Assembly: GCA_025774555.1 (NCBI GenBank)
Contig: JALGVT010000007.1
Location: 17,327-81,326 of the forward strand
Source of the DNA: a candidate division LCP-89 bacterium
GTDB lineage: Bacteria; Electryoneota; B3-LCP
Length of the DNA: 64,000 nucleotides
Direction: 5' to 3'
Position numbers and translations under genes: made by a program. Under the pieces are notes generated by a model. The model ran no database searches. It saw nothing but the letters and a program-made list of their open reading frames with translations, and was not told the DNA's origin. Shown piece after piece: positions 2,716 to 58,874 of the stretch. Positions within the stretch are counted from its first letter, which is position 1; each line of letters starts with the position of its first letter.

Positions 2716-3864
2716 ATGGACATGAAATTAGCTGATCGTTATCTTAAACTTCCACCCTATCTCTTCGCAGGGTTAGAGCAGAAAACGGCAGCGATGAAAG
2801 CCGCCGGAGTCGATCTGATCGACCTCGGAATAGGAGATCCCGACCTGCCACCGCCCGCATTTTTCGTCGCTTCGATGCACAGACATCTGGACGATGCCGA
2901 TACTCACCTCTACCCCACCAGCCAGGGCGATCCCGCGGTGCGCCGAGTAATCGCTGAATGGTTCAAGAATCGCTTCGGCGTAACCTTAGACCCTGATAGG
3001 GAGATATGTGTGCTCATCGGCGCCAAGGAGGGATTGGCGAATTTCTCACGAATAATCGTGAATCCCGGCGAAAAGGTCGCCGTTCCTGATCCAGCTTATC
3101 CGGTTTATGCTCAAGCAGGAGCGATACTTAACGACGCCGAACCGGTCCGTCTGCCTCTCGACCCTGAAAAAGGCTTTATTCCCGATATATCCGCGGCAGA
3201 AGGATGTCGAATACTGTATCTAAATTACCCAAACAACCCGACTGGAGCTACCGCCCCTGATGAATTTTTCGATGAAGTTGCCGCCTTTGCTGAGAACCAT
3301 CCCGATACTGCCGTAGTACAGGACGCCGCCTATTCAGAGATGACTTTCGGCGGTTACCGATCCCCCTCGCTGCTGCAGTTCACGCGAAAAGCGATAGAGT
3401 TTCATTCCATATCGAAGCTGTTCAACGCTACCGGCTTCAGAGTGGGCTTCGCCGTTGGCAGCGCTTCATTGATCAAACCGCTGACAGCGTTAAAAACGCA
3501 ATTCGATTCGGGCGCGCCGCTTTTTATCCAGAGAGCCATGGCTGACGGCTTAACGCGATACGATGGAGCCACTCCCCCCCCGAAGATCATTCAAAACCTG
3601 AGAGAATACGAAAAGCGACGCTTACTCGTTGAAGATGGATTGGAATGGCTCGGCTGGGACGTGCTTAAATCGAAGGCTACGTTCTTCGTCTGGGCAAAGG
3701 TTGGCGATGACGAGCTGCCTGTCGTCAACGCCGCGATTGGTAAAGGCGTGGTGTTAACACCCGGCAGCGGTTTCGGGAAATCCGGAACAGGATATGTGCG
3801 CCTGGCGTTATGTCAACCTTATGACCGCATTGAAGAGGCAGTTGAGCGGTTAAAAGGGTTGTAA
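2716..3864 (+). CDS. Class I/II PLP aminotransferase, LL-diaminopimelate aminotransferase (DapL)-like
   Basis: LPPYLFAGLEQK...IDLGIGDPDLPPP N-terminus typical of DapL-type aminotransferases; SKLFNATGFRVGFAVG PLP-lysine region. Confidence 0.6.
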   Translation: MDMKLADRYLKLPPYLFAGLEQKTAAMKAAGVDLIDLGIGDPDLPPPAFFVASMHRHLDDADTHLYPTSQGDPAVRRVIAEWFKNRFGVTLDPDREICVLIGAKEGLANFSRIIVNPGEKVAVPDPAYPVYAQAGAILNDAEPVRLPLDPEKGFIPDISAAEGCRILYLNYPNNPTGATAPDEFFDEVAAFAENHPDTAVVQDAAYSEMTFGGYRSPSLLQFTRKAIEFHSISKLFNATGFRVGFAVGSASLIKPLTALKTQFDSGAPLFIQRAMADGLTRYDGATPPPKIIQNLREYEKRRLLVEDGLEWLGWDVLKSKATFFVWAKVGDDELPVVNAAIGKGVVLTPGSGFGKSGTGYVRLALCQPYDRIEEAVERLKGL

Positions 3865-4017
3865 CTGTATTTGCGCGGATCTTTAGTATAAAAATAACTG
3901 GGTCATTCAGGCTGTCCAAGAATATAGATTTGTGTGTCGTTGCACGCCCTCGTGCGACGAAATAACAAGTACTTAACAGTCAGACGGGGGCGTCTGACTG
4001 CACGATTATATAAACAA

Positions 4018-4046
4018 GCCCGGGTCATTTTGCCCGGGTTTGTTTT
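4018..4046 (+). terminator. Rho-independent terminator (gcccggg-tcatttt-gcccggg + T-tract), between convergent genes; preceded by two more hairpins at 3937..3960 and 3979..4002
   Basis: perfect 7-bp GC stem followed by tttgtttt. Confidence 0.6.
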
Positions 4047-4077
4047 ATCATGAAAAATCGCGCATTCTCTGCTGTCA

Positions 4078-4341
4078 TCACTTCATTCTCAGTTCAGGTG
4101 TGTACGTTTTGTAAGGTGTGTCGGGCCATTCATCGAACACACGCTCAGGTGACTCGTATTGGAAAGGAGACGTGGGCCATTCTTCAGGATGCGATAACAG
4201 ATATTTCCCGATAATCGGCAGTATGAAAAAAGCCTTTTCCTGTTTTGCCGTCTTCGCCGAAGCAACCCCCATGGAGACAGTGCCCAGTGCGAAGAAGGCG
4301 ACCAGCATCAGTGTTGCCAGTTTCATAATAACCTCCAGCAC
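4078..4341 (-). CDS. Small hypothetical secreted protein
   Basis: 87 aa, N-terminal signal peptide (MKLATLMLVAFFALGTVSMGVASA). Confidence 0.35.
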   Translation of the reverse strand: MLEVIMKLATLMLVAFFALGTVSMGVASAKTAKQEKAFFILPIIGKYLLSHPEEWPTSPFQYESPERVFDEWPDTPYKTYTPELRMK

Positions 4342-4549
4342 GTAGTTAATTTAATGCCTCCTGTCCACTAATTAGGCAAATGACATGCCAATAGTGTAAC
4401 TATCGCAATAACAATATAATACTGCGAACTTACCCACATAATTATTACGTGTTGCTACGCTTAAATTAAAGCTCTATTGTTGAAATCTATCAGAACGCTA
4501 CAACGGAATGTTCAAAACAGATCAAGTTTGTTAAGAATGTTTTTGTGGT

Positions 4550-5965
4550 TTATCTGGTGGGATGTTCTAAGGGTTCAGCGTGGATCAAGGCTCGGGATAA
4601 TTCGGGGATGGTTCTGCACAGTTCGTCTTCCAGTTCGGTCGTCTTCAGATGGACTTCTCGGACGGGAAGATCAGCGGGAAAGAGACAATGCATAGTGGCG
4701 GCAAGTCTGCCGGAATCATCATTCAGGAATATCTCATGGCATCTCCCCTCACCAAGAAAACGTTCGCAGACTGACTTAATTTTTTCTGTGATGTCTGGTC
4801 TGTCCAATCTAACGGTTTCCAGGTGTTGATGAAAACCGCCAGTTTCTTCAATGTGAATTTGTACTGATTTAATCTCATAATATTGATGCAAGAGTTTCAT
4901 TTCCAGGTCAGTCGCCAGTTTATGCGCATCACCCAATGTCTTATCGCCGGATACTTCGAGGTGTAGTTCCGCGATATATTGATGTCCGTCACGAAGCAGT
5001 GTGAGATGGTGTGCTTGAAATCCCTCGGAGTTGATGAAGTGAAGAATGCCTATATCGAGGGATTCATGGCGGTGCGCAGCCGGATTCATGTGAACCACAA
5101 CGTCCAGACCACTGATTTGCTGGCTCAATTTTCTCTCCAGAATGCGCGCAACATCGTGAGCTTCACTAAAAGAGAGAGTCCGGTCTATAGCCACCCGCAG
5201 ATCCGCAAAGATATTGGATCCTGACCTTCTCAATCGCAGTTTATCAATGGATAGGACTCCTGCTTCCGGTAAGACAACCTCGCGAATCTGCTGAATATAT
5301 TCTTCGGGGACGCGGTCGATCAGAATGTCCAGATTCTTCTTACCGAGACGAATTGCTAAGACACCAACCCAGATTGCGATCAGTAAAGCAGCGATAGCAT
5401 CCGCACGCGGATACCCCAGCGCTACGGCAGCTAAACCAACAATAACCAGACTTGAACTCAAGATATCTGAATAGAAGTGGATAGCGTCAGCTTCCAACGC
5501 CTGAGATTGATATTTTTTAGCGGTCCGCATCAAGGCACGGTAGCGATAAAAGTCCACGATAATAGCCAGCAGCAAGACCATGAAACTATAGATTGTGATC
5601 CGAGGGATTTCGACCGGGCTGGTCAACCTTGTAATAGCTTCCGAAAGAATCCAAAAGCAGGCAGCTAAAAGAAGAGCGGCTTCAAAAAGAGCTGAAAGAC
5701 TCTCGATCTTGCCGTGACCGTAATGGTGAGTCGCATCGGCGGGACGGTCAGCCGCTTTAACAGATAGAGCGGTGATCAGCGAAGCGAGAAAATCGAGTCC
5801 GGAATGAGCTGCTTCAGCCAGAAGCGCTAAAGACCCTGTCAGTATCCCAACAACTGCTTTTATAGCAATCAGAAAGAGAGATGCCCCGACGGAAATCAGG
5901 GCTACCTTTATCTTCTCAAAACCGCTTGAGACAGCATCGTTTTCGGAAGCACTGCGGTGCGTCAT
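4550..5965 (-). CDS. Cation diffusion facilitator (CDF) family metal efflux transporter with three tandem C-terminal cytoplasmic domains
   Basis: 6 TM helices, HYGHGKIESL motif; three successive CDF-CTD-like segments; start set at ATG 5965 because it forms an ATGA overlap with the stop of the upstream ORF (ORF-track start 5983 is an alternative). Confidence 0.7.
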   Translation of the reverse strand: MTHRSASENDAVSSGFEKIKVALISVGASLFLIAIKAVVGILTGSLALLAEAAHSGLDFLASLITALSVKAADRPADATHHYGHGKIESLSALFEAALLLAACFWILSEAITRLTSPVEIPRITIYSFMVLLLAIIVDFYRYRALMRTAKKYQSQALEADAIHFYSDILSSSLVIVGLAAVALGYPRADAIAALLIAIWVGVLAIRLGKKNLDILIDRVPEEYIQQIREVVLPEAGVLSIDKLRLRRSGSNIFADLRVAIDRTLSFSEAHDVARILERKLSQQISGLDVVVHMNPAAHRHESLDIGILHFINSEGFQAHHLTLLRDGHQYIAELHLEVSGDKTLGDAHKLATDLEMKLLHQYYEIKSVQIHIEETGGFHQHLETVRLDRPDITEKIKSVCERFLGEGRCHEIFLNDDSGRLAATMHCLFPADLPVREVHLKTTELEDELCRTIPELSRALIHAEPLEHPTR

Positions 5966-6282
5966 AGAAAATTCTCTTCCCATTCAATATCTTCTAAAAT
6001 AACCTCTTCACCTTCGGATTCATCCCAGATAGCCATAGGATTGACATACGATATCCAGTCAAGGAAATCATCGCGCCCTGAAAATCGATCGAGAAACCGA
6101 TAAATCATGCTCACATCGACTTCCATAATGTGCGGCGGTAATTGAGATCCCCGAAGGAGGCTATAATCGACGTCAGCGCCATTCTCCTCAGCCCAGTCTG
6201 CCATCATCCGCTTGAGCGTCCACCAATATTCACCAAAATTGACATAGGCTTCGGGATGCAACAATAGACCTTCCAGGATCAC
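5962..6282 (-). CDS. Hypothetical acidic protein, translationally coupled to the CDF transporter
   Basis: 106 aa; stop TGA overlaps the ATG of the downstream CDF gene. Confidence 0.35.
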   Translation of the reverse strand: MILEGLLLHPEAYVNFGEYWWTLKRMMADWAEENGADVDYSLLRGSQLPPHIMEVDVSMIYRFLDRFSGRDDFLDWISYVNPMAIWDESEGEEVILEDIEWEENFL

Positions 6283-6622
6283 GCCGAAATCCAGATCGGA
6301 AGCTGTATTGGTTGTTTTTTCCAGCGGTATACACTCCCATTATTTTTTAATAATGTAATAATCCCTTTATAGCTTGTCAAGTAAAATAATAAAGCAATGA
6401 GGGTGCGATGCTGCATTGTCATTGCCAAGGCAAAACAGAATTATCTTAATTCTCTAAATTCTTAGACATTCTATTTCATTGGGCTCCTCGCATGGGTTTC
6501 CACTCGTGGCTAATAATGGGTTCATCCTACGAAGGGGCTGTCTTTCTGACCTGCGGGATTATTCAGATCCCTGAAGGAGATCACCTACGGGCAGCTTTGG
6601 ATGGAAATCCATGGTGATTTTC

Positions 6623-6661
6623 GTCGGGGTTGGGGACACCATAAGCGGAGCCGACCACCGG
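6623..6661. repeat. Expanded P2-type REP-like palindrome (gtcggggttggggacacca..gcggagccgaccacc)
   Basis: homologous to the in-frame element at 53049..53092; lies in a 500-bp ORF-free intergenic region. Confidence 0.5.
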
Positions 6662-6759
6662 TTATGGAGGAAGTAACTGCTGGAGTCGAGAAAGTGAACG
6701 ACCACCCACTATGGAGATGTAGAGGCTGCTGTTAACAAAATAGAGTTAATCTCACATAA

Positions 6760-6801
6760 AGCAAAGAGGCTAACCCGTTGGATCAGCCTCTTCTTACTTT
6801 T
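6760..6801. terminator. Bidirectional rho-independent terminator (gaggctaacccgttggatcagcctc) after pilC
   Basis: 25-nt hairpin flanked by T-rich runs on both strands. Confidence 0.55.
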
Positions 6802-32931: not shown

Positions 32932-33040
32932 ACCCCTCTTTTTAAGAGGGATATGCTCGTCATTTTGTCAGGTCTTGTCCGTCGGCTAACGGATATGGCC
33001 CGACGCAACAGGTAATAATGTGGTATGGTTGAAAAAAAGC

Positions 33041-36005: not shown

Positions 36006-37523
36006 ATGTCGAAGCTAATTACTTTCTTCATCGCTTTCGCGATATTGATCCCTTCTTCCTTTGCTGCAACGATTCATGTCCCCGGGAATTATGCCACAAT
36101 ACAAGCTGGTGTAAACGCAGCAGCCAATGGTGATACCGTACTTGTTGGACCGGGAACGTACACCGAAAGCGTTACCATTCAGAACGTTACCATCCATCTT
36201 CTTACCTCAAACGGACCGGACGCGACCAAGATTATAAGAACCGGCTCCGGATTGATCAGCTGTCTGACCGTCTATACATCTTCTGAAATCAGAGGTTTCA
36301 CGCTTGAGCGATCTGGCGCGTATTTGACGGCTGCTACACTCCAGGTTCTCGATGGAAGCCCGCTCGTTCATCACAATCTCATCAAATGTATCGCAGAAGG
36401 TGTGATCTGCGTGGAGATTGCAGGATCCGGCTCGCCTCAATTTCTGAACAATACTCTGTATGGATTGGATGATGACTTCAATTACGGATTCAAAGTCACT
36501 TCATCGGCAGTCTGCCCGACGATAAAAAACAACATCGTCTACTTGAATCCTTCGATTTTCGGGCCGGAATACGGTATTTACAATCAGGCTGGCGCCGCCA
36601 TCATTCATACGTACAATGATTTCTACCAATGCACTTTATCCGGAACCTCTCTGGGGTTGGGTGAGATTCAAACCAATCCACTGTTTGTCGGGGGAAGTCC
36701 GTACTCCTATCACCTTCAATCAAACTCCCCCTGCATTGACACGGGAGTCCCTATATTTACCGACCCGGACTTCACGCGAAGCGACATGGGATGCTTCTAT
36801 TATGATCAGGGCACATTATCCGTCAATGTAACCGTAACCCTGACACCGGATACCATTCCTGTGCAGATTCCTGCTTCTGGAGGTAGTTTTGACTATAACA
36901 TCGCCGTTGCGAACCCTGAAGCCTTCTCGGTTCCAGCTAATGTGTGGTTTATGATAACTCTTCCGAGCGGTGTGTTGTGGGGCCCTATACAGAACCCAAT
37001 TAACGTGAACCTAAATGCTGGTTTTAGCGGCAATCGTGACAGGACCCAATTTATACGAGGCTCCATATCGCCAGGCAGCTATACTTATCACGCGTATATC
37101 GGTCTTTACCCCGGCATAATCTGGGATCACTCCTGCTTTGGCTTTGAGAAATTGATCACCGGCGGTGAATCAGAAGTGTATGATTGGTACTGCACTGGTG
37201 AAAGCTTCGATGAGTGGCAGACTACACCTGAGATTGATATCTCAGCTGAATTTAACTTGCGAGGCGCGTACCCCAATCCCTTTAATCCCTCGACAGCTAT
37301 CAGCTATCAGCTTTCAGCGCTCAGCTTTGTGAACCTTGCTGTTTATGATCTATCGGGACGGAAAGTTGCCGAACTGGTCAATGGCTGGCGGGATATTGGC
37401 AGCCACGAAGTAACCTTTGACGCTTCTGATCTGTCATCCGGCATGTATTTGTACAAACTTCATGTGTCGGGGTCAGGGGTGATCCCGACTATTGATACCG
37501 GTAAGATGGTGCTTATGAAATAA
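36006..37523 (+). CDS. Secreted pectate-lyase-fold beta-helix protein with pre-CTD module and T9SS C-terminal sorting domain
   Basis: TIHVPGNYATIQAGVNAAANGDTVLVGPGTY N-terminus; CTD YPNPFNPSTAISYQLS...GKMVLMK. Confidence 0.8.
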   Translation: MSKLITFFIAFAILIPSSFAATIHVPGNYATIQAGVNAAANGDTVLVGPGTYTESVTIQNVTIHLLTSNGPDATKIIRTGSGLISCLTVYTSSEIRGFTLERSGAYLTAATLQVLDGSPLVHHNLIKCIAEGVICVEIAGSGSPQFLNNTLYGLDDDFNYGFKVTSSAVCPTIKNNIVYLNPSIFGPEYGIYNQAGAAIIHTYNDFYQCTLSGTSLGLGEIQTNPLFVGGSPYSYHLQSNSPCIDTGVPIFTDPDFTRSDMGCFYYDQGTLSVNVTVTLTPDTIPVQIPASGGSFDYNIAVANPEAFSVPANVWFMITLPSGVLWGPIQNPINVNLNAGFSGNRDRTQFIRGSISPGSYTYHAYIGLYPGIIWDHSCFGFEKLITGGESEVYDWYCTGESFDEWQTTPEIDISAEFNLRGAYPNPFNPSTAISYQLSALSFVNLAVYDLSGRKVAELVNGWRDIGSHEVTFDASDLSSGMYLYKLHVSGSGVIPTIDTGKMVLMK

Positions 37524-37534
37524 AACGCAGAATG

Positions 37535-37589
37535 TGTCATCCCGGACTAGATCCGGGATTGAGTAGGGGCGAGATCACCTCGCCCCTAC
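37535..37589 (+). repeat. 3' element: tgtcatcc motif + hairpin (tcccgga/tccggga) + P1-variant GTAGGGGCGAGATCACCTCGCCCCTAC
   Basis: perfect 12-bp GTAG-headed palindrome. Confidence 0.6.
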
Positions 37590-42201: not shown

Positions 42202-42241
42202 AATAATTATTCAGATTTATTTATCTTTGTCATTTACTGGT

Positions 42242-42266
42242 GGGGCAGACATTCCTGTCTGCCTAT
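42242..42266 (+). repeat. RAYT-flanking hairpin (left copy)
   Basis: ggtggggcagacattcctgtctgcc. Confidence 0.6.
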
Positions 42267-42745
42267 TTGTCAGATTATCAGTATCTTGTATGCAAATATA
42301 AAGAGCAGAATATTCCTCTGGGACACTGCACAATTCTGCTTTTATAGGATTATTATAGATATAATTGAGTTTCTCTAGAAATTCGTTATAATCTCTTATG
42401 ATTCGATCAAAAGATTCATCCTGCCAGATTGAGCCTGTTTTACGACGAAGTTGATTGATTTTTCTTGCAGATACTCCCTTGATTCCTTTCATAATCCTAG
42501 AAAGAGGAAACTGCGTAAAAGGTGTAATAATAAGATGAACATGGTCTGGCATTATTACCGCAGCAGATAATCTGTAATATTTTTGATCTCCATTTAGTAT
42601 GTGATTTAACACCGCAACTCGCTCAGAATATGAGATATTATCGTGTTTAACTCGAAAGGTAATATAATAGGCAGCATCTTCAAGTATCCAATGTGGAAGC
42701 CTCCGATGGGCGATCTGAAAAACAGGTTTTTCAGTGGCAGACAAG

Positions 42746-42774
42746 AATGTCTGCCCCACCCTTTTCTTGGTTTC
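42746..42774 (-). repeat. RAYT-flanking hairpin (right copy, inverted)
   Basis: revcomp reads gggtggggcagacattcttgtctgccactg. Confidence 0.6.
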
Positions 42775-42854
42775 ATTCACCCAAGCCCCACCATTTCCTT
42801 GCTTTCAGCAATCCAATTCTCTGTTAATATAATTTCCTACTGCATTGTTACCTT

Positions 42855-43973: not shown

Positions 43974-44776
43974 CAGGAAATATCCCTCTGCGCAGGACCG
44001 TCATATTCAAACGGAGGCGGTCCCAATTTTCGCATGGTTTTTTCACGAGTCCATTCTTCGATGACATGAGCGATCAAACCGGGAACGCGGCTGATGATGA
44101 AGAAGCCTTTGCCCAAGCGCCAGTCGAATCCCATCTCGCTGATGACCGCGGCAATAGCGCCGTCCACGTTCAGCGGAAGGTCTCTGCCGGAGGTACGTTC
44201 CAGCTCGTCCTGAACGGCTACAGCCAATTCGATGATCCTGCCCTTATATCCGATTCTTTCAGCGATTTCCAGCATCTTGACGGTGCGAGGATCCCGCTTA
44301 TGGATGCGGTGACCGTAACCGGGCATACGGATTTTCTTTTCCTTTAAATCGGCGACAAGCTGCACCGCCAGTTCTTCAGGCGTCCCCTCCTTTTGCACCC
44401 ATTCCTGTAGGATTTTCGCGCATTTTTCAATGGCTCCGCCGTGTGAATCGCCGATAGTCAGTACTCCGGCTGCGACGGCTGCGTTCAGGGAATTGCCTCC
44501 CGAGAAAACGGTGCGCGCGGCGAGATTCGAGGGCGGCGTGGGACCGTGATCGATCGATGAGACGAGCATCGCTTCTATCATTCTGCGCTGCTGGTTATCA
44601 GGAAGTTCGCCCTTGAGAATCAGATATATTACGTCGGAGAATGACAGATGCTCCATGATGTCGGCGATATCGTAGCCGCGCACTCGTATCTGACCGCCGC
44701 CGATATCGGTTATGGCAGTTTTCCAGGTTGGTTCTGACATGATTTCCTCTCTGAAATCCGTTAATTCCAGTTCCAA
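43973..44776 (-). CDS. Citrate synthase family short-form protein (citryl-CoA lyase-like)
   Basis: 267 aa; GYGHRIHK signature of the citrate synthase active site, homologous to the C-terminal domain of citrate synthase/ATP-citrate lyase. Confidence 0.55.
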   Translation of the reverse strand: MELELTDFREEIMSEPTWKTAITDIGGGQIRVRGYDIADIMEHLSFSDVIYLILKGELPDNQQRRMIEAMLVSSIDHGPTPPSNLAARTVFSGGNSLNAAVAAGVLTIGDSHGGAIEKCAKILQEWVQKEGTPEELAVQLVADLKEKKIRMPGYGHRIHKRDPRTVKMLEIAERIGYKGRIIELAVAVQDELERTSGRDLPLNVDGAIAAVISEMGFDWRLGKGFFIISRVPGLIAHVIEEWTREKTMRKLGPPPFEYDGPAQRDIS

Positions 44777-44967
44777 TCGTCGGATTCCTCCGATGGAGAC
44801 ACTTCGTGGTGGGAATCCGACCTATGGTTCTGTTCAATAATACGAAATTATGCGGCAAATTGCAAGTAAATTCCGCAGGGGAGTTGTACCCCGCCATAAA
44901 TGACGGGTTTACGAATAAACAAATCCTCTGAAGAGGGCTTCTTTCAAGGAATAAGTCGGATTCAGGG

Positions 44968-45068
44968 GAATCCAACCTACAAAAGCTGGATCACGGAAAA
45001 ACTCGGATTATTCGGATTGCGCGGATGAATGTTACGTGGTGGTAGGGGCGAGGTTACCTCGCCCCTAC
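44968..45068 (+). repeat. 101-bp direct repeat copy 1 (ends with P1 REP 45042..45068)
   Basis: ~95% identical to 47234..47334; flanks the 45262..47160 gene. Confidence 0.7.
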
Positions 45069-45149
45069 CATTACTACATGGAAAATGGTGATCGTAAGCG
45101 CGCACAGCATGCCGAATTCCAGATATCGGTCTATGGCAAAATATTGCGC

Positions 45150-45178
45150 TTGACTTTCTAAAAAGAAATAATTATATT
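45150..45178 (+). promoter_or_regulatory. Putative sigma70 promoter (attgcgcTTGACTttct-17-TATATT)
   Basis: same attgcgcttgactttct block as at 47686. Confidence 0.45.
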
Positions 45179-45261
45179 GCACGAGAAAAGCATTGCTTTT
45201 CATCCAGATAATAAATATATTTAGCAAACCCAAATCCGTCCCAACTAATTTGAGGTGCAAA

Positions 45262-47160
45262 ATGCAGAGACAACTCTACCTACTACTACTAATTCTTCTA
45301 ATCATTCCAACGCTCCTGATTGCTGCTCCAGCGAATGTAAGACCAATGTATCCCCTGCCGCCTATCTTCACCGGGCTTGAGGATGTGCCGGATAACATTC
45401 CAGTCGTTCATCCGCCCTATAATCTATCTGATATCGATGGTATCGACATATTGGGTGATACCGTCACAGTGGGCGACACCTGGTATGAATACCAGCATAA
45501 CGCTACGATCGGCAGACAGATCAGGTTAAGCGATGACGGTTACATTCACATGGTCTGGACCAAAGGTGAAGATGAACCATCCAACAACCGGCATATCTAT
45601 TACAACTACATCGATCCATCAGGTCAACAGGGTTGGCAAGGCAGTGGATATGCCGTAGAATCTTCACAACGCGGTGGTTTTACCAGCCTTGCAGTAGGCT
45701 GGGATGGCATCGCATTCCCGGCTTTTCACCAGGTTACAGGAACGAATGCTCACACAGCGGTCGCCACTGACTTCTTCCCCCATGCGGGAGCGTTCCTAGT
45801 TTATGAAATACCTTGGTACAACGGGCAAGACCTGGAATATATCTGGCCCAGAATTACGATGAAAACGGATGGTGAAATACTCGTCACCAGCGTAGGCAAC
45901 TCCGATCCCACGGGCGCTTCAGGCATGACCTGGTCAATGGGAACCTATGATCCTCTGACATACAGCATAAGTTATACTCCACAGATATTATGCGGACCTT
46001 TTACCCATATTTCTAATGAAGTCGGGGCATCGCGAGTGTCCAACCGAGTCGGTAGCGCTTACTGCGCACCGCTTGAAAACGACGTAGGTGGATGGGATGT
46101 CCACGCGATGATTGACAACGATGGTCTGGACTTGAATTTCGATAACTACTGGAACGTTACGAAGTTCATGGAGCCTGATCTCGCCTGGCTGCCGGATACT
46201 CTTATGGCTAATGCGGACACACTTCGAGCCTACTGTGACGTTTCCATGTTTTACGACATGGATGACTACTGCCACATCGCTTTCACAACCTGCCGCTGGT
46301 TTGAACTGGAAGGCGGTCTGGTTTATTGGAACGCTTCGCTGATCTGGCACTGGTCGGAACGCTGGCCCAACGATTATCATGTCATCGCAAACGCCTTTGA
46401 CCCAGATAGTTTTGTCGATTGCGGCGGTTGGAATTTCCGTGGTCAACGCCCGTCCCTTGGTCAGGATCCTGAAACCGGTTACCTCTATTGTATGTACCAG
46501 GAATTCGACGTCGATTCAACTGCGATTTCTCTGGGCGGTTGGCCCTCAGGCGAGGTTAAAATATCGGTTTCGACCGATAACGGCGCGACCTGGTCAGTGG
46601 GAACGAACATCACCAATACGGTTACACCAGAAAATGCTCCCCCAGGAGAATGCCTCTCTGAAGCGTATCCCTCTATGGCGGAAGTAGTTGACGGCAACTG
46701 TCATGTCCTGTATGTTCTCGACTTAGATGCAGGCGCATTCCTTCAGACTGAAGGAACCATTACACTTAATCCCATCATCTACCACAAAGTGCCGGTCGAT
46801 CTCATTCCGACGTCGCCGACAGTGGAGAACCTGACATTCCACGTGGCGCATACCGGACCGGTAGTATCGACAGAGCCGGAAGATGAAGCAAAACTAACGA
46901 AGTTTGCGCTACAGCAGAACAATCCCAATCCTTTCAATCCGAACACGACGATACAGTTTTCGCTGGAAACCATAAGCGATATCCGTCTATCGGTGTACAA
47001 TCTGAGGGGTGAGCTGATATCCACACTCGCTGATGGAGCTTTTTCAGCCGGGATACACACCATCGCTTTCGACGGCAGCCGTCTCTCTTCAGGCTTGTAC
47101 GTTTACCGTCTTGAAACGGAAGGCAAATGTCTCCAGAAGAAGATGCTGTTACTAAAGTAG
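45262..47160 (+). CDS. Secreted BNR-repeat protein with T9SS C-terminal sorting domain
   Basis: RBS gaggtg; signal peptide MQRQLYLLLLILLIIPTLLIAAPA; SVSTDNGATWSVG BNR motif; CTD NPNPFNPNTTIQFSLE...KKMLLLK (ORF-track start 45193 is upstream, in-frame). Confidence 0.65.
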   Translation: MQRQLYLLLLILLIIPTLLIAAPANVRPMYPLPPIFTGLEDVPDNIPVVHPPYNLSDIDGIDILGDTVTVGDTWYEYQHNATIGRQIRLSDDGYIHMVWTKGEDEPSNNRHIYYNYIDPSGQQGWQGSGYAVESSQRGGFTSLAVGWDGIAFPAFHQVTGTNAHTAVATDFFPHAGAFLVYEIPWYNGQDLEYIWPRITMKTDGEILVTSVGNSDPTGASGMTWSMGTYDPLTYSISYTPQILCGPFTHISNEVGASRVSNRVGSAYCAPLENDVGGWDVHAMIDNDGLDLNFDNYWNVTKFMEPDLAWLPDTLMANADTLRAYCDVSMFYDMDDYCHIAFTTCRWFELEGGLVYWNASLIWHWSERWPNDYHVIANAFDPDSFVDCGGWNFRGQRPSLGQDPETGYLYCMYQEFDVDSTAISLGGWPSGEVKISVSTDNGATWSVGTNITNTVTPENAPPGECLSEAYPSMAEVVDGNCHVLYVLDLDAGAFLQTEGTITLNPIIYHKVPVDLIPTSPTVENLTFHVAHTGPVVSTEPEDEAKLTKFALQQNNPNPFNPNTTIQFSLETISDIRLSVYNLRGELISTLADGAFSAGIHTIAFDGSRLSSGLYVYRLETEGKCLQKKMLLLK

Positions 47161-47233
47161 CCTTAAGACTCTAACAAAAAAGGGGCATGCGATGCATGCC
47201 TCTTTTTCTATTAGGTTGCTTGTCGGTTTCGGA

Positions 47234-47334
47234 GAATCCTACCTACAAAAGCTGGATCACGGATAAGATCGGATTATTCGGATTGCGCGGATGAATGTTG
47301 CGTGGTGGTAGGGGCGAGGTTACCTCGCCCCTAC
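47234..47334 (+). repeat. 101-bp direct repeat copy 2 (ends with P1 REP 47308..47334, followed by CTAC-rich tail)
   Basis: see copy 1. Confidence 0.7.
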
Positions 47335-47410
47335 CCCTACCACTACCATTACCACTGAGGATGGCTGCGCCACACAGGAATTAATCCTCTTACTGAGTGA
47401 CTTAAACGTT

Positions 47411-47506
47411 GCGTCAGGTCCTAAGCGCAGCGGAGACCTGACGCCGAAACGCTTGCAAATAAAAGTGTCAGGTCACATCCGTCAACCGACGGACAGGACC
47501 TGACAC
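47411..47506. repeat. Two P3-family hairpins (gcgtcaggtcc...ggacctgacgc and gtgtcaggtcacatccgtcaaccgacggacaggacctgacac) bracketed by 13-nt direct repeats actgagtgactt(a/c)a at 47392 and 47515
   Basis: second P3 copy at 58787..58822. Confidence 0.55.
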
Positions 47507-47693
47507 AACAGATAACTGAGTGACTTCACAGCAAAGCATCCCCACCAAATGGAACGATCCAATTATTAACAGCTTTCAGCAGCAATTATAAAATTTCTGC
47601 CGTTTCGGAAAAAAAGGTTTGCAAAATCAATAGAAATTTTGTAATTTTATAGTATAGAAATCCATTTAGCCCGGAGGTGCAAAAAATTGCGCT

Positions 47694-47721
47694 TGACTTT
47701 CTCACATAAAAGCCTTATACT
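47694..47721 (+). promoter_or_regulatory. Putative sigma70 promoter (attgcgcTTGACTttct-16-TATACT) for 47770 operon
   Basis: consensus hexamers; conserved upstream block. Confidence 0.45.
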
Positions 47722-49405: not shown

Positions 49406-51151
49406 ATGGTAATAAAGATATACGGTTTTTGTATGCGCGTATCAGCCCTCCTGATATTCGTTCTTACGGTTAGCTCTCCTTTATCCGCCCAGGTCATCGA
49501 AGAATGGGTTATAAGAGAAAACGGACGCGGCAACGGTCCGGATTATGCGAAGGATATAGTTATCGATCAAGATGGCAACATTATTGTTACCGGCTATTGC
49601 GATCGTTCGCTTCATCCTGATTGGGTTGACTATGATTTTGCCACAGCAAAATATGACAATTCCGGCAATACTATCTGGATTGCGCGTTATCCCGGTCTCG
49701 TTGACGAAAACGATAAAGCTTACGCGTTAGCCCTGGATGAAGCGGGCAACGTCTATGTGACCGGCGCTGGCAGCGGTCACGCTGATGATTACACTACGAT
49801 CAAATATAACTCCGATGGAGTTCAACAGTGGATGGCGCAATATACGAGTCCAGGCAATTACTATGATAAACCTAATGCGATAGCTGTGGACTCTGAAGGC
49901 AACGTCTACGTTACGGGATACAGTAACACGAGATCGTTCTATAATCACGATTACACCACTATTAAGTACAACTCCTCGGGTCAAGAGCAGTGGATAGCAA
50001 TTTATGATGGCACTGGCGGTGAAGATGATGAAGCGAAAGCAATTGTAGTTGACACAGACGGAAACGTCTACGTTACAGGTGATTGTTATGACGAGCATTT
50101 TTCCAACTACTGCATGACCATCAAGTATGATCCCGGGGGCAACAGAGTCTGGACAGCAGCTTACCATTTCCAGTTTGCCAACATAGGCTATGCCATAGCT
50201 GAAGATATGGTGCTGGACAACGCGGGCAACGTCTATATTGCCGGCTATCACGGTGATGAACGAGACTCCGAATTCCTCGTCGTGAAGTATGATTCGTTCG
50301 GCGTGGAACAGTGGGCTGAGCATATAAGTGCCAGCGGGGGCAGTTATGATTACTGTCATGCCATGACGATCGACGCTGACGCCAATCTGTACGTCACTGG
50401 TGAAGGATTCTGCAGTACCACAGATTATGTTACTATCAAACTTGATTCCGATGGAAATGTGGAGTGGATATCGTCATACGACGGGAACTGGGGTGGAGAT
50501 GATAGCGCGAACGATATAGTGGTAGATGCTGAAGGTAATGTCTACGTTACGGGAGAAAGTGAGATAGGGGCATATACTTACGAGTACGCTACTGTGAAGT
50601 ACGATCCCAACGGAGATGAAGAATGGGTTATGATTTATCCGGACAACTTGCCGGATTTCTATAGCAGCAGAGCCAGCGCTATTGCTATGGATAATGAAGG
50701 CAGCGTCTATGTTACCGGAAATTCCTATGTAGCTGAGACAAATTATGATTTTGCCACTGTAAAATACAGCCAGCCATCAGGGATAAAGGATAAAACCGTT
50801 ATCAGCGCCGAACCGTCGAAATTCAGCATAATCAGCGTTTATCCCAATCCATTCAACCCGGCAACAGTTATCAGCTTCGAGTTGCAAGCTGCAAGTTGGA
50901 TTAGATTGGATGTGTTTGGTATAAACGGGCGGAATGTAGGGACGGTAGGGGCGAGGTTACCTCGCCCCTACACGTCGGGGTCAGGGACGACCCCGACTAC
51001 GGGATTCTATCCCCCCGGCATGAACGCCATTACTTTCGATGGAACGGAGCTGACATCGGGGATATATATTTATCGACTTACTGCCGATAATGTGTCGGGG
51101 TCAGGGGCGACCCCGACTACGGCGAGTGGGAAGATAGTGCTGATTAAATAG
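49406..51151 (+). CDS. Secreted SBBP/beta-propeller repeat protein with T9SS C-terminal sorting domain interrupted in-frame by REP-like palindromes
   Basis: RBS aaggggg; signal peptide; ~8 repeats ...GN(V/I)YVTG...; CTD YPNPFNPATVISFELQ... then inserted VGARLPRPY/TSGSGTTPTT and VSGSGATPTTA segments encoded by P1/P2 palindromes; ends GKIVLIK. Confidence 0.7.
   Translation: MVIKIYGFCMRVSALLIFVLTVSSPLSAQVIEEWVIRENGRGNGPDYAKDIVIDQDGNIIVTGYCDRSLHPDWVDYDFATAKYDNSGNTIWIARYPGLVDENDKAYALALDEAGNVYVTGAGSGHADDYTTIKYNSDGVQQWMAQYTSPGNYYDKPNAIAVDSEGNVYVTGYSNTRSFYNHDYTTIKYNSSGQEQWIAIYDGTGGEDDEAKAIVVDTDGNVYVTGDCYDEHFSNYCMTIKYDPGGNRVWTAAYHFQFANIGYAIAEDMVLDNAGNVYIAGYHGDERDSEFLVVKYDSFGVEQWAEHISASGGSYDYCHAMTIDADANLYVTGEGFCSTTDYVTIKLDSDGNVEWISSYDGNWGGDDSANDIVVDAEGNVYVTGESEIGAYTYEYATVKYDPNGDEEWVMIYPDNLPDFYSSRASAIAMDNEGSVYVTGNSYVAETNYDFATVKYSQPSGIKDKTVISAEPSKFSIISVYPNPFNPATVISFELQAASWIRLDVFGINGRNVGTVGARLPRPYTSGSGTTPTTGFYPPGMNAITFDGTELTSGIYIYRLTADNVSGSGATPTTASGKIVLIK
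50945..50971 (+). repeat. P1 REP-like palindrome GTAGGGGCGAGGTTACCTCGCCCCTAC inside CDS (27 nt = 9 codons)
   Basis: identical to intergenic copies at 45042 and 47308. Confidence 0.8.
50974..51002 (+). repeat. P2 REP-like palindrome GTCGGGGTCAGGGACGACCCCGACTACGG inside CDS
   Basis: second copy inside same CDS at 51094..51122; intergenic variant at 40877..40905. Confidence 0.8.
51094..51122 (+). repeat. P2 REP-like palindrome (second intragenic copy)
   Basis: GTCGGGGTCAGGGGCGACCCCGACTACGG. Confidence 0.8.
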
Positions 51152-51303: not shown

Positions 51304-53121
51304 ATGCGCAGGTCTGTTCTGATCGTTTCATGTTTCAGTCTATTACTAATCGCTGCTTACAGTGAGGCACAGCCGCAAATCAGCGGACAGTTGAACGGCA
51401 CACTGCGAGCAGGGACGTACATTGTCGTTGGCGATATCGAAGTGGGGGTTACAGATTCATTAATTGTCGAGCCCGGCGTAACCTGTCTCTTCGACAGTAT
51501 TTTCAGCATCCGCATTTATGGATATCTGTACGCGGTCGGCACAGAGACTGACAGCATCATATTTCGTCCCAATGACGGAGTGGAAAGTTTCAACAGCATC
51601 ATCTTCCAGGACGGATCGTCTAACAACAGCGAACTTGGATACACATTCATAACCGGCGCCGCGGGAAGCGCCATCAACGCGTACTATGTCAACGTAACAA
51701 TTTCGCATTGCACGATTTCCGCAAACAGAGCCAACTGGGGCGGCGGGATATACTTTTCAAGCTCTAACGGCGTCATCTCTGATTGTGTCGTCACCGACAA
51801 TACCGCCATCCACAACGGTGGGGGCATTTACTGCACTCACTCCTCGCCAACCATTGAAAACTGCATTGTGCTGCAAAACTATTCCAATTATACTGGCGGT
51901 AACGGCAGCGGCAGGGGAGGCGGAGGTATATGCGCAAATCACGTTTCCAGTCCTTCTATAACGAACTGTATCGTTGATGATAACGTCACTGAGGCGAACG
52001 GCGGCGGCATTGCCGTTAATGACAATTCCAACGTGACTATTCTGAACTGCACGATGAACAACAACAGCGCCGACAGCAGCGGTGGGGGTCTTTACATCAG
52101 CGCCAACTGTACGCCTGTCGTCCGCAACTGTGAAATGCACTCCAATTCCACCGAGATGAACGGCGGGGGAATCTGCCTTGAAACCAACGTTCCGGCGATC
52201 ATTGATAGCTGCACCGTTCATTCGAACACAGCGGCTTGGAATGGCGGAGGGGTCGCTCTCCTGTACACCGATCCAGAAATCAGCCGCTGCGAAATTTATG
52301 ACAATGAGGCAACTCACGGCGGCGGTTTATATTCATTTAAAAATGATTCAACCGAGATCATCCACTGCACTTTCAGCGGTAACGACGCGTTGCAGCAGGG
52401 CGGCGGAGTAGAACTGGATAGCAGCAAGGTGCAGATCAGTAACACAATCGTCGAAGGAAGCACCGGCAATGGCGGAATACACTTTTCTGACTCGGACACG
52501 TCAACGGTGGCATACTGTGATTTCCACGATAATTTAAATGGTGATTTCACAGGAACGCCGCCGGCAAATTTAGGTATTATAACGACTGTCAATGCCAACG
52601 GCGATACCTGCGATGATTTCTTTAACATCTTCCTCGATCCGCTCTTCGTCGACCCCGTAAGCGGGGATTTCAATCTGCAGGAGAACTCGCCGTGCATTGA
52701 TGCGGGTGACCCGGAAAGTCCACAAGATCCTGACGGTACTGTTGCGGATATTGGTGTTCATTATTATGAGATCACCAGCATTCGAGATCAGCAGGAATCT
52801 CATCTGCCTGCGATGATTTCTGTATCAAATTACCCCAATCCCTTCAATCCCACCACCACCATCCGCTTTGATCTGCCGGTTGCCAGCCAGGTCAGGTTGG
52901 AGGTGTTTGATATTAATGGGCGGAATGTTACCAGCAGCCAGCCACCAGCAACCAGCAACTCTTACCCCCCCGGCAAGCAAGCCATCACCTTCGATGGATC
53001 GGGGCTGGCATCGGGAATATACATTTATCGACTTACTGCTGATAAATTGTCGGGGTCAGGGGCACCACAGGCGGAACCGACCACGACTACGGCGAGTGGC
53101 AAGATGGTGCTGATTAAATAG
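51304..53121 (+). CDS. Secreted parallel beta-helix repeat protein with T9SS C-terminal sorting domain carrying degenerate in-frame REP insert
   Basis: start at ATG 51304 after ggagg RBS (ORF-track start 51226); ISGQLNGTLRAGTYIVVGDI N-terminus paralogous to 33194 gene; GGGI(Y/C) repeats; CTD with low-complexity insert TSSQPPATSNS and expanded P2 at 53049..53092. Confidence 0.75.
   Translation: MRRSVLIVSCFSLLLIAAYSEAQPQISGQLNGTLRAGTYIVVGDIEVGVTDSLIVEPGVTCLFDSIFSIRIYGYLYAVGTETDSIIFRPNDGVESFNSIIFQDGSSNNSELGYTFITGAAGSAINAYYVNVTISHCTISANRANWGGGIYFSSSNGVISDCVVTDNTAIHNGGGIYCTHSSPTIENCIVLQNYSNYTGGNGSGRGGGGICANHVSSPSITNCIVDDNVTEANGGGIAVNDNSNVTILNCTMNNNSADSSGGGLYISANCTPVVRNCEMHSNSTEMNGGGICLETNVPAIIDSCTVHSNTAAWNGGGVALLYTDPEISRCEIYDNEATHGGGLYSFKNDSTEIIHCTFSGNDALQQGGGVELDSSKVQISNTIVEGSTGNGGIHFSDSDTSTVAYCDFHDNLNGDFTGTPPANLGIITTVNANGDTCDDFFNIFLDPLFVDPVSGDFNLQENSPCIDAGDPESPQDPDGTVADIGVHYYEITSIRDQQESHLPAMISVSNYPNPFNPTTTIRFDLPVASQVRLEVFDINGRNVTSSQPPATSNSYPPGKQAITFDGSGLASGIYIYRLTADKLSGSGAPQAEPTTTTASGKMVLIK
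53049..53092 (+). repeat. Expanded/degenerate P2 element inside CDS
   Basis: gtcggggtcaggggcaccacaggcggaaccgaccacgactacgg; homologous to intergenic 6623..6661. Confidence 0.6.
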
Positions 53122-53148: not shown

Positions 53149-53175
53149 GTAGGGGCGAGGTAACCTCGCCCCTAC
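53149..53175 (+). repeat. P1-variant REP GTAGGGGCGAGGTAACCTCGCCCCTAC just after stop codon, convergent with AsmA-like gene
   Basis: perfect 12-bp palindrome. Confidence 0.75.
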
Positions 53176-58786: not shown

Positions 58787-58822
58787 TCAGGTCACATCCG
58801 TCAGCCGACGGACTAGACCTGA
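58787..58822. repeat. P3 hairpin copy 2 (tcaggtcacatccgtcagccgacggactagacctga)
   Basis: matches 47467..47504. Confidence 0.6.
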
Positions 58823-58874
58823 CGTAACAGGGAACATGTCTAATATACTTTTTAGAAGTGGAAAAAGCAAGCGG

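Follow-up and report, generated by a model that had tools for sequence, protein, structure and literature searches.

A direct repeat resembling REP/BIME clusters in the two spacers around a type IX secretion cargo gene of a candidate division LCP-89 bacterium

A stretch of 64,000 nucleotides from a candidate division LCP-89 bacterium (contig JALGVT010000007.1, positions 17,327 to 81,326, forward strand; called the window below) contains a composite repeat of 123 nt. Two copies of it lie in the same orientation in the spacers that flank a gene for an Asp-box protein of the type IX secretion system (T9SS). We read this unit, with moderate confidence, as an intergenic repeat cluster that resembles repetitive extragenic palindromic (REP) sequences and bacterial interspersed mosaic elements (BIMEs), and that was copied in one orientation into both of the permissive spacers next to the gene. 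The unit is read as a discrete cluster of this kind because its borders are sharp, its build is modular, its modules also exist separately, the gene between the copies is ancestral, and the spacers of the region are widely colonised. The case documents REP-type repeat clusters in an uncultured lineage of the Fibrobacteres, Chlorobi and Bacteroidetes (FCB) group, where such repeats inflate and diversify the spacers around conserved genes. It also shows that a flanking pair of direct repeats is not enough to call a cassette.

The composite repeat and its modules

The first-pass annotation of this DNA had described two segments of 101 nt, 44968..45068 and 47234..47334, as about 95% identical in the same orientation. 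Both points hold for this core, which has 5 mismatches in 101 nt, and the true repeat is longer. A gapped local alignment of the two spacers extends it to 123 nt in the upstream copy (E-up) and 122 nt in the downstream copy (E-down), with one 1-nt indel and about 91% identity. The similarity ends abruptly on both sides, soft scoring included, with the left border at GTCGG, the right border at ..CTACYAC and unrelated flanks beyond. Within the window E-up matches E-down with a BLAST E-value of 2e-26, and its sub-blocks of 21 and 31 nt are each found exactly two times in the window, where 100 shuffles give an expectation of 0, so chance is excluded as the source of the repeat. The copies diverge at about 9% of positions, all of them outside the terminal palindrome P1, and share exact blocks of 23, 31 and 35 nt. 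The parts of the unit are as follows.

44955..45077 (+), E-up, upstream copy of the composite repeat, from local alignment
47222..47343 (+), E-down, downstream copy of the composite repeat, from local alignment
44955..44976 (+), left module of E-up, a P3-like hairpin GTCGGATTC-AGGG-GAATCCAAC, from folding
45003..45030 (+), three direct CGGATK half-sites at 9-nt spacing (TCGGATTAT TCGGATTGC GCGGATGAAT), from the sequence
45042..45068 (both strands), palindrome P1 (GTAGGGGCGAGGTTACCTCGCCCCTAC) in E-up, with a 13-bp perfect stem, a 1-nt loop and a GTAG head on each strand
47308..47334 (both strands), palindrome P1 in E-down, with the surrounding 35 nt the same as in E-up
47328..47356 (+), hexamer slippage tail CCCCTA/CTACCA of about 4 copies, a 6-nt tandem array found in E-down only

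The left module is a small hairpin with the arms GTCGGATTC and GAATCC. In E-down (47222..47242) a stem mismatch and a 1-nt loop deletion break this hairpin with no compensating change, and a hairpin left unmaintained in this way looks like decay rather than selection on structure. The CGGATK half-sites are placed at the end of the linker and are identical in E-down (47269..47296). The CGGATT-rich block of the repeat reads TCGGATTATTCGGATTGCGCGGATGAAT, and E-up and E-down both finish in the palindrome GGTAGGGGCGAGGTTACCTCGCCCCTACC; the block and the terminal palindrome had been noticed in the first pass and are indeed present in both copies. The CTAC-rich tail reported after the downstream copy is the 6-nt tandem array listed above, which prolongs the 3' arm of P1 in E-down. 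When the unit is folded as DNA or as RNA, both the minimum-free-energy and the centroid structures contain two independent terminal hairpins, with no long-range or end-to-end pairing. On the minus strand both hairpins start with GTAG.

Both hairpin modules are also found on their own. The P3-like hairpin alone has an extra copy (GTCGGATTCC..GGAATCCGAC) at 44779..44821, in the same upstream spacer as E-up, and in one relative, the metagenome-assembled genome (MAG) L042, a P3-like hairpin directly follows a P1 copy. P1 has five copies in the 64 kb, four in spacers (37563, 45042, 47308 and 53149) and one in frame inside the gene 49406..51151. Three of the five stand alone, with flanks that are unrelated.

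37563..37589, P1 copy in the spacer that follows the T9SS gene 36006..37523
50945..50971, P1 copy in frame in the gene 49406..51151
53149..53175, P1 copy in a spacer

The lone P3-like copy, the adjacency in L042 and the lone P1 copies together indicate that the modules exist separately and are sometimes adjacent. All five P1 copies in the window read GTAGGGGCGAG..CTCGCCCCTAC, which places GTAG on both strands, and folding z-scores for P1 run from -3.4 to -4.8. P1 occupies four of the roughly ten spacers between 36 and 54 kb, with other GT(A/C)G..C(T/G)AC palindromes alongside.

The 5' block of the unit, 82 nt long, has no third copy in the window according to nhmmer. That program stretched the P1 match at 50886..50973 into the 5' block with a gain of only about 2-4 bits; the flank in question is outside the 13 best of 237 P1 flanks, and those 13 score 10-15 versus 52-60 for E-up and E-down. 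The idea that the 5' block is a decayed fragment of a T9SS C-terminal domain was rejected as chance. A 20-mer from the block gave 18 matches among JGI metagenome contigs, all of them chance matches inside unrelated coding sequences. A scan of viral contigs found neither the 5' block nor P1, and blastn found no match of the whole unit to plasmids. Rfam models gave nothing at the gathering threshold in the whole window and nothing credible at E<=1 in 44850..47600, which lends no support to a known RNA.

The palindrome itself is widespread. With the loop base left free, the exact 27-nt palindrome GTAGGGGCGAGnTnACCTCGCCCCTAC was found at more than 119 loci when one genome per species was scanned, in MAGs labelled Poribacteria, Anaerolineales, Zixibacteria, Acetothermia, Planctomycetes, Nitrospirae, Fimbriimonadales (Armatimonadota), Stahlbacteria, Uhrbacteria (of the candidate phyla radiation, CPR), a cyanobacterium and others. 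Among the matches listed, the flanks of these loci in other genomes were always unrelated. Classical REPs are lineage-specific, and the breadth of P1 across phyla contrasts with this. A literature search for the P1 sequence returned a single match, an irrelevant human sequence.

Some copies lie inside coding sequence. In the gene 49406..51151, P1 and a second palindrome, GTCGGGGTCAGGGnCGACCCCGAC, stand in frame inside T9SS C-terminal sorting domains (50920-51000 and 51090-51120), where they take the place of loop residues (..GRNVGTVGARLPRPYTSGSGTTPTT.., ..VSGSGATPTT..). In-frame palindromes are found in sorting domains of two other MAGs as well (L042, 2060-2150; L112). P1-like palindromes also encode the linker just N-terminal of several sorting domains (KGDARVAPT, GRGDLAPT), in the window at 37462-37490 and 53045-53080.

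The bracketed gene, its spacers and its relatives

The gene between the two copies and the signals in its spacers are listed here.

45262..47160 (+), bracketed gene for an Asp-box (BNR-like) protein with a T9SS C-terminal sorting domain, from Pfam and synteny
44865..44837 (-), promoter-like site TTGCAA-17-TATTAT of the citrate-synthase-like operon, from a consensus scan
45150..45178 (+), promoter-like site TTGACT-17-TATATT of the bracketed gene, within the conserved motif TTGCGCTTGACTTT, from a consensus scan
47693..47721, twin promoter-like site before the next gene, from a consensus scan
47177..47207 (+), intrinsic-terminator-like hairpin with A and T tracts, right after the stop codon and upstream of E-down
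44924..44946 (+), weak orphan terminator-like hairpin with a T-rich tail, 18 nt upstream of E-up
47408..47509, second palindrome family, two GTCAGGTC..GACCTGAC hairpins with inverted outer arms forming a REPIN-like doublet (REPINs are described below), following E-down

As had been proposed, the repeats bracket the gene together with its promoter, since the promoter-like site at 45150..45178 lies inside the pair. The earlier label of a BNR-repeat T9SS cargo protein is borne out in part: the sorting domain scores above its Pfam cutoff (Por_Secre_tail, 32.2 bits, cutoff 27) and the protein has a canonical Asp-box, STDNGATW, but its match to the Pfam family BNR_4 is below threshold.

The bracketed gene is ancestral at this site, and its spacers received the repeats later. 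Orthologues with about 70% protein identity and 68% DNA identity occur in the same gene order at the related loci L138/L139, L140 and L141-L144. The conserved order has an aconitase-like, a PorV-like (sub-threshold match) and a citrate-synthase-like gene on the minus strand, and the Asp-box/T9SS gene, a gene of 335-350 amino acids (337 aa) and a gene of 101-107 amino acids (106 aa) on the plus strand; in L141 and L142 a beta-helix T9SS gene and a DUF748 gene are next in order. At the DNA level the window and these loci are 68-78% similar across the genes, and this similarity is lost precisely in the two spacers. The spacers of L138/L139 are short; they hold a terminator and a promoter of the same kind but no repeat whatsoever, and L140 has a single unrelated palindrome downstream of the gene and no flanking pair. 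The spacer downstream of the gene measures 210-340 nt in L138 and L140 versus 610 nt in the window. The synteny of the orthologues in relatives free of the repeats shows that the gene did not arrive as a mobilised cassette. The nearest named relatives of the source lineage are MAGs of candidate division LCP-89 and Zixibacteria, at 43-63% protein identity.

Paralogy of the whole spacers was considered and dropped: between the two spacers of the window, only the unit and a short promoter motif align, and the motif is conserved in relatives without the unit. This motif, (A)TTGCGCTTGACTTT, occurs in the 64 kb at 45144 and 47687 only and is conserved in all relatives examined (L138-L146), and its retention where the unit is absent marks it as a feature of the promoter and not as part of the repeat. 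The shared motif suggests co-regulation of the T9SS gene and the next gene, a winged-helix-like gene of 335 aa; JGI annotates the family of this downstream gene as a winged-helix regulator.

On one side of E-up is the promoter-like site of the citrate-synthase-like operon (-) and on the other, divergent from it, that of the T9SS gene (+); E-down begins 15-22 nt 3' of the terminator-like hairpin of the T9SS gene. With one copy between divergent promoters and the other after a terminator, neither would be expected in a normal mRNA, going by the consensus scans. Terminator-like sites are in count not above shuffle expectation. The GTCAGGTC..GACCTGAC family that follows E-down has an inner CCGTC..GACGG hairpin and singlets at 32966-33016 and 58787-58835, and each of its sites is located between a gene end and the next promoter.

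The loci L141-L144 represent one sister species sampled four times. In this species the orthologous gene is likewise bracketed by a direct repeat, which is unrelated in sequence to the unit of the window (L141, 4010-4215 and 6400-6620). It consists of a hairpin, CTGCCGAGT-GCGGGG-ACTCGGCAG, followed by 24-nt units that repeat the right arm. In two samples the flanking copies agree at 96-98% over 56 nt. The samples differ in how many 24-nt units they have, and two of them have a shorter downstream copy; no copy was found outside those two spacers within 9-12 kb. The palindrome of L140 is related to this element and is present as one copy, downstream only. All four samples of the sister species retain exactly one copy of the gene.

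Across species the syntenic site holds 0, 1 or 2 copies of the gene. L147/L148 have two tandem paralogues (2853-6760) that are 56% identical in amino acids, with no such repeats between them in L147, and L146 (6685-7002) and L145 (5729-7001) have no such gene upstream of the 337-aa gene. By this comparison of loci, the gene number at the site has evidently changed in evolution, with no change linked to the repeats. The presence/absence variation that the first-pass annotation had proposed to look for in related genomes is found for the gene itself and is not tied to the repeats. At the expected place of the gene, L146 has two copies of a 50-nt promoter motif, 80% identical and 109 nt from each other.

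The neighbouring transposase gene and known element classes

A gene for a REP-associated tyrosine transposase (RAYT) is located 2.2 kb from the repeat.

42217..42780 (-), RAYT gene, from NCBIfam and Pfam

The open reading frame matches the NCBIfam model NF047646 with 84.5 bits (curated cutoff 80) and Pfam Y1_Tnp with 38.5 bits (cutoff 23), and inverted palindromes, GGCAGACA-nnnn-TGTCTGCC, overlap both of its ends at 42244..42263 and 42736..42755. The match to a curated model and the flanking inverted palindromes place it in the RAYT class. The GGCAGACA..TGTCTGCC palindrome occurs nowhere else in the window. The RAYT unit is absent from the relatives, in which its two neighbour genes are 21-24 nt apart and the operon is otherwise conserved. 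Judging from this gene order, the RAYT gene is a lineage-specific insertion, which means that tyrosine-transposase activity has acted in the neighbourhood. The usual description of RAYTs is of single-copy genes with vertical inheritance.

P1 was considered as the cognate REP of this RAYT and rejected, because another palindrome flanks the gene and P1 peptides are lacking in its 120 listed homologues. Among the 120 best homologues, 19 have termini with peptides of the RAYT's own palindrome (VGQTFLSA, GQTGMSAPP and GRQECLPH; 24 matches), and P1-encoded peptides were found in none of the 120. A RAYT-like gene is present at only 2 of the 119 P1 loci of other genomes. The homologues with the palindrome-encoded termini VGQTFLSA and GQTGMSAPP come from Planctomycetes, Ignavibacteria, KSB1, Zixibacteria and others.

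In shape P1 agrees with a REP, being a palindrome within the range of 20-40 nt that is able to form a stem-loop (27 nt), and it carries the 5' GTAG at the foot of the hairpin; a cognate RAYT flanked by the same REP is not seen with it in the window. In E. coli the 5' GTAG tetranucleotide is needed for binding and cleavage by the RAYT, and the REPs are imperfect, as they carry a bulge on which RAYT binding depends (PMC3479197). P1 departs from the E. coli REPs as a perfect 27-nt palindrome with no bulge. As in the REPs and BIMEs of enterobacteria and pseudomonads, P1 is short and GC-rich and has a GTAG head, and in the 64 kb it is multicopy (5 copies, 4 of them intergenic and 1 in frame in a gene) and follows gene ends, REPs being present in high number within one genome and mostly outside genes; the palindromes and linkers of the window are likewise clustered into mosaics, and a RAYT with inverted palindromes is present in the region. 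Unlike a BIME, the unit pairs one P3-like hairpin with one P1, of different sequence, in place of a REP/iREP pair, and P1 is symmetric and hence has no orientation. Unlike classical REPs, the exact P1 is common to many phyla and some of its copies lie in frame within genes, and unlike classical REP/RAYT systems, the palindromes of the neighbouring RAYT belong to another family. The earlier description of a BIME-like composite is thus apt for the REP-like hairpins and for the GTAG-headed, multicopy and mostly intergenic P1, but the unit is not a strict BIME or REPIN.

REPINs, as described by Bertels and Rainey, are non-autonomous, RAYT-dependent spacer repeats of about 100 nt (PMC3116915, PMC3337134), in which a REP doublet with complementary ends forms one long hairpin (PMC3337134). 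Long palindromic REP singlets have been described as REPIN derivatives (PMC3116915, PMC3337134). P1 resembles these singlets, and the GTCAGGTC doublet has the geometry of a REPIN. The 123-nt unit differs from a REPIN in that it folds as two unrelated short hairpins and is known from two copies.

The unit also lacks the terminal inverted repeats and target-site duplications of a miniature inverted-repeat transposable element (MITE). Palindrome-associated mini-elements derived from the insertion sequences (IS) of the IS200/IS605 group have two different hairpins, both subterminal and on the same strand; they lack terminal inverted repeats and target-site duplications and insert in an orientation-specific way. 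The unit is similar to them in its two different hairpins on one strand, in the lack of terminal inverted repeats and target-site duplications, and in the shared orientation of its copies; it is unlike them in that no target tetranucleotide is readable from the two copies and no related full-length IS was found. The comparison with an integron cassette fails on the gene, which has its own promoter and is syntenic in relatives. Of the core sites of an attC, RYYYAAC (as ATCCAAC) occurs in E-up only and GTTRRRY in neither copy, where GTTACGT and GTTGCGT do not fit.

Origin of the paired copies

In the reading that we favour, the gene was in place first and the unit then colonised both of its flanking spacers, most likely by a local duplicative insertion that was single-strand and either transposase- or replication-dependent. 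Each copy would have landed just 3' of a hairpin with a T-tract and 5' of the next promoter, and the GTAG heads on the minus strand are the motif read by tyrosine (HUH-Y1) REP transposases. A local, strand-specific duplicative insertion would explain why the same layout is seen with another repeat in the sister species, and the lack of alignment between the flanks speaks against a simple segmental duplication. The unit itself probably has no dedicated function. As a side effect, its two copies would be a substrate for homologous recombination, which could delete or tandemly duplicate the gene.

Several observations weigh against this reading. No target-site duplication was found at E-up or E-down (flanks GGAATAA/ATGGAAA and GTTGCTT/TGAGGAT or TACCATT), nor any terminal inverted repeat, as GTCGGATTCA and GTAGTAATGG, the reverse complement of the right end, agree at 5 of 10 positions. 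Only two full copies of the unit are known from the 64-kb window and the collections searched, and the 5' block was not found at the 119 P1 loci of other genomes. The only RAYT in the window has a cognate palindrome other than P1. Finally, the layout in the sister species repeats around the orthologous gene, which may mean something more specific than neutral colonisation.

Recombination between E-up and E-down is possible. The suggestion in the first-pass annotation that the repeats mediate duplication or deletion of the gene stands in so far as RecA-dependent events could in principle use the exact blocks of 23, 31 and 35 nt, and the copy number of 0 to 2 across species is in line with it, but no change in number is linked to the repeats. 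That the direct repeats are kept by selection, so that the T9SS cargo gene can be reversibly deleted or amplified in the manner of a contingency locus, seems rather improbable. Such an architecture would fit the direct orientation and the exact blocks, the unrelated repeat that brackets the L141-L144 orthologue and occurs nowhere else in 12 kb, and the variation in gene copy number across species; the close likeness of the flanking copies in two of the L141-L144 samples (96-98% over 56 nt) and the shorter downstream copy in two may mean exchange. It is hard to square with the exactly one gene copy held by all four samples of the sister species, with the tandem paralogues of L147, which are old (56% aa) and not separated by such repeats, with L138 and L140, which are without a flanking pair, and with the divergence of about 9% between the window copies outside P1. 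We give little credence, too, to a paired placement that is no accident, in which the spacers round this T9SS gene would repeatedly gain a direct repeat (two unrelated repeats in two species) and thereby create a copy-number switch for a secreted surface protein, the repeats coming from a cross-phylum P1 system with an enzyme other than the neighbouring RAYT. The repeats would carry greater weight if they drive gain and loss of a secreted-protein gene in populations, if the cross-phylum identity of P1 reflects horizontal spread by another enzyme, or if in-frame P1 in secretion-signal domains is tolerated or functional.

A past tandem duplication of the gene with its downstream repeat, after which the upstream gene copy was lost and its 3' repeat left behind, is unlikely. 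The two tandem paralogues at the site in L147/L148 offer a precedent for it, and the weak orphan terminator-like hairpin before E-up, at 18 nt, has a distance similar to that between the real terminator and E-down. However, neither the left nor the right flanks align, and at 91-95% unit identity duplicated flanks should be recognisable; the two terminator hairpins also differ in sequence, and terminator-like sites are no more frequent than in shuffles. IHF or gyrase binds BIMEs, and by analogy the unit could be a protein-binding or regulatory module in which the CGGATK half-sites and hairpins bind a regulator or nucleoid protein and insulate or co-regulate the two TTGCGCTTGACTTT promoters. The three half-sites at 9-nt spacing, identical in both copies, would suit this, as would the placement of each copy ahead of a TTGCGCTTGACTTT promoter, of which the window has only two, and the annotation of the downstream gene family as a winged-helix regulator. 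We hold it at a low probability, as one copy lies 73 nt from the -35 box and the other 350 nt, relatives share the promoters but not the unit, and no CGGATK array is found at the other promoters of the window. Least credible is the mobile gene cassette proposed in the first pass, in which the repeats would be att-like or RAYT-processed ends that carried the gene and its promoter in. Direct repeats that bracket exactly one gene with promoter and terminator, and a RAYT gene 2.2 kb away, make it a natural thought. It is already contradicted by the relatives, where the orthologue keeps its synteny to either side in the absence of the repeats (as in L138 and L140), and further by the different palindrome that flanks the RAYT and its homologues, by the absence of P1 peptides from the 120 best of these homologues, by the absence of attC-type core sites and by the lack of matches in viral or plasmid collections.

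The spacer that holds E-up also differs among relatives in another respect. In L141 a PDDEXK_3 (GxxExxY) gene stands between the citrate-synthase-like and T9SS genes (3449-3832), as it does in L142-L144. A remnant of about 60 nt is present in L140 (3555-3620), and the gene is absent in the window (44742-44835). At its edges are short direct repeats, CGCGGAT/CGCAGAT, which resemble the CGGATK iterons of the 123-nt unit.

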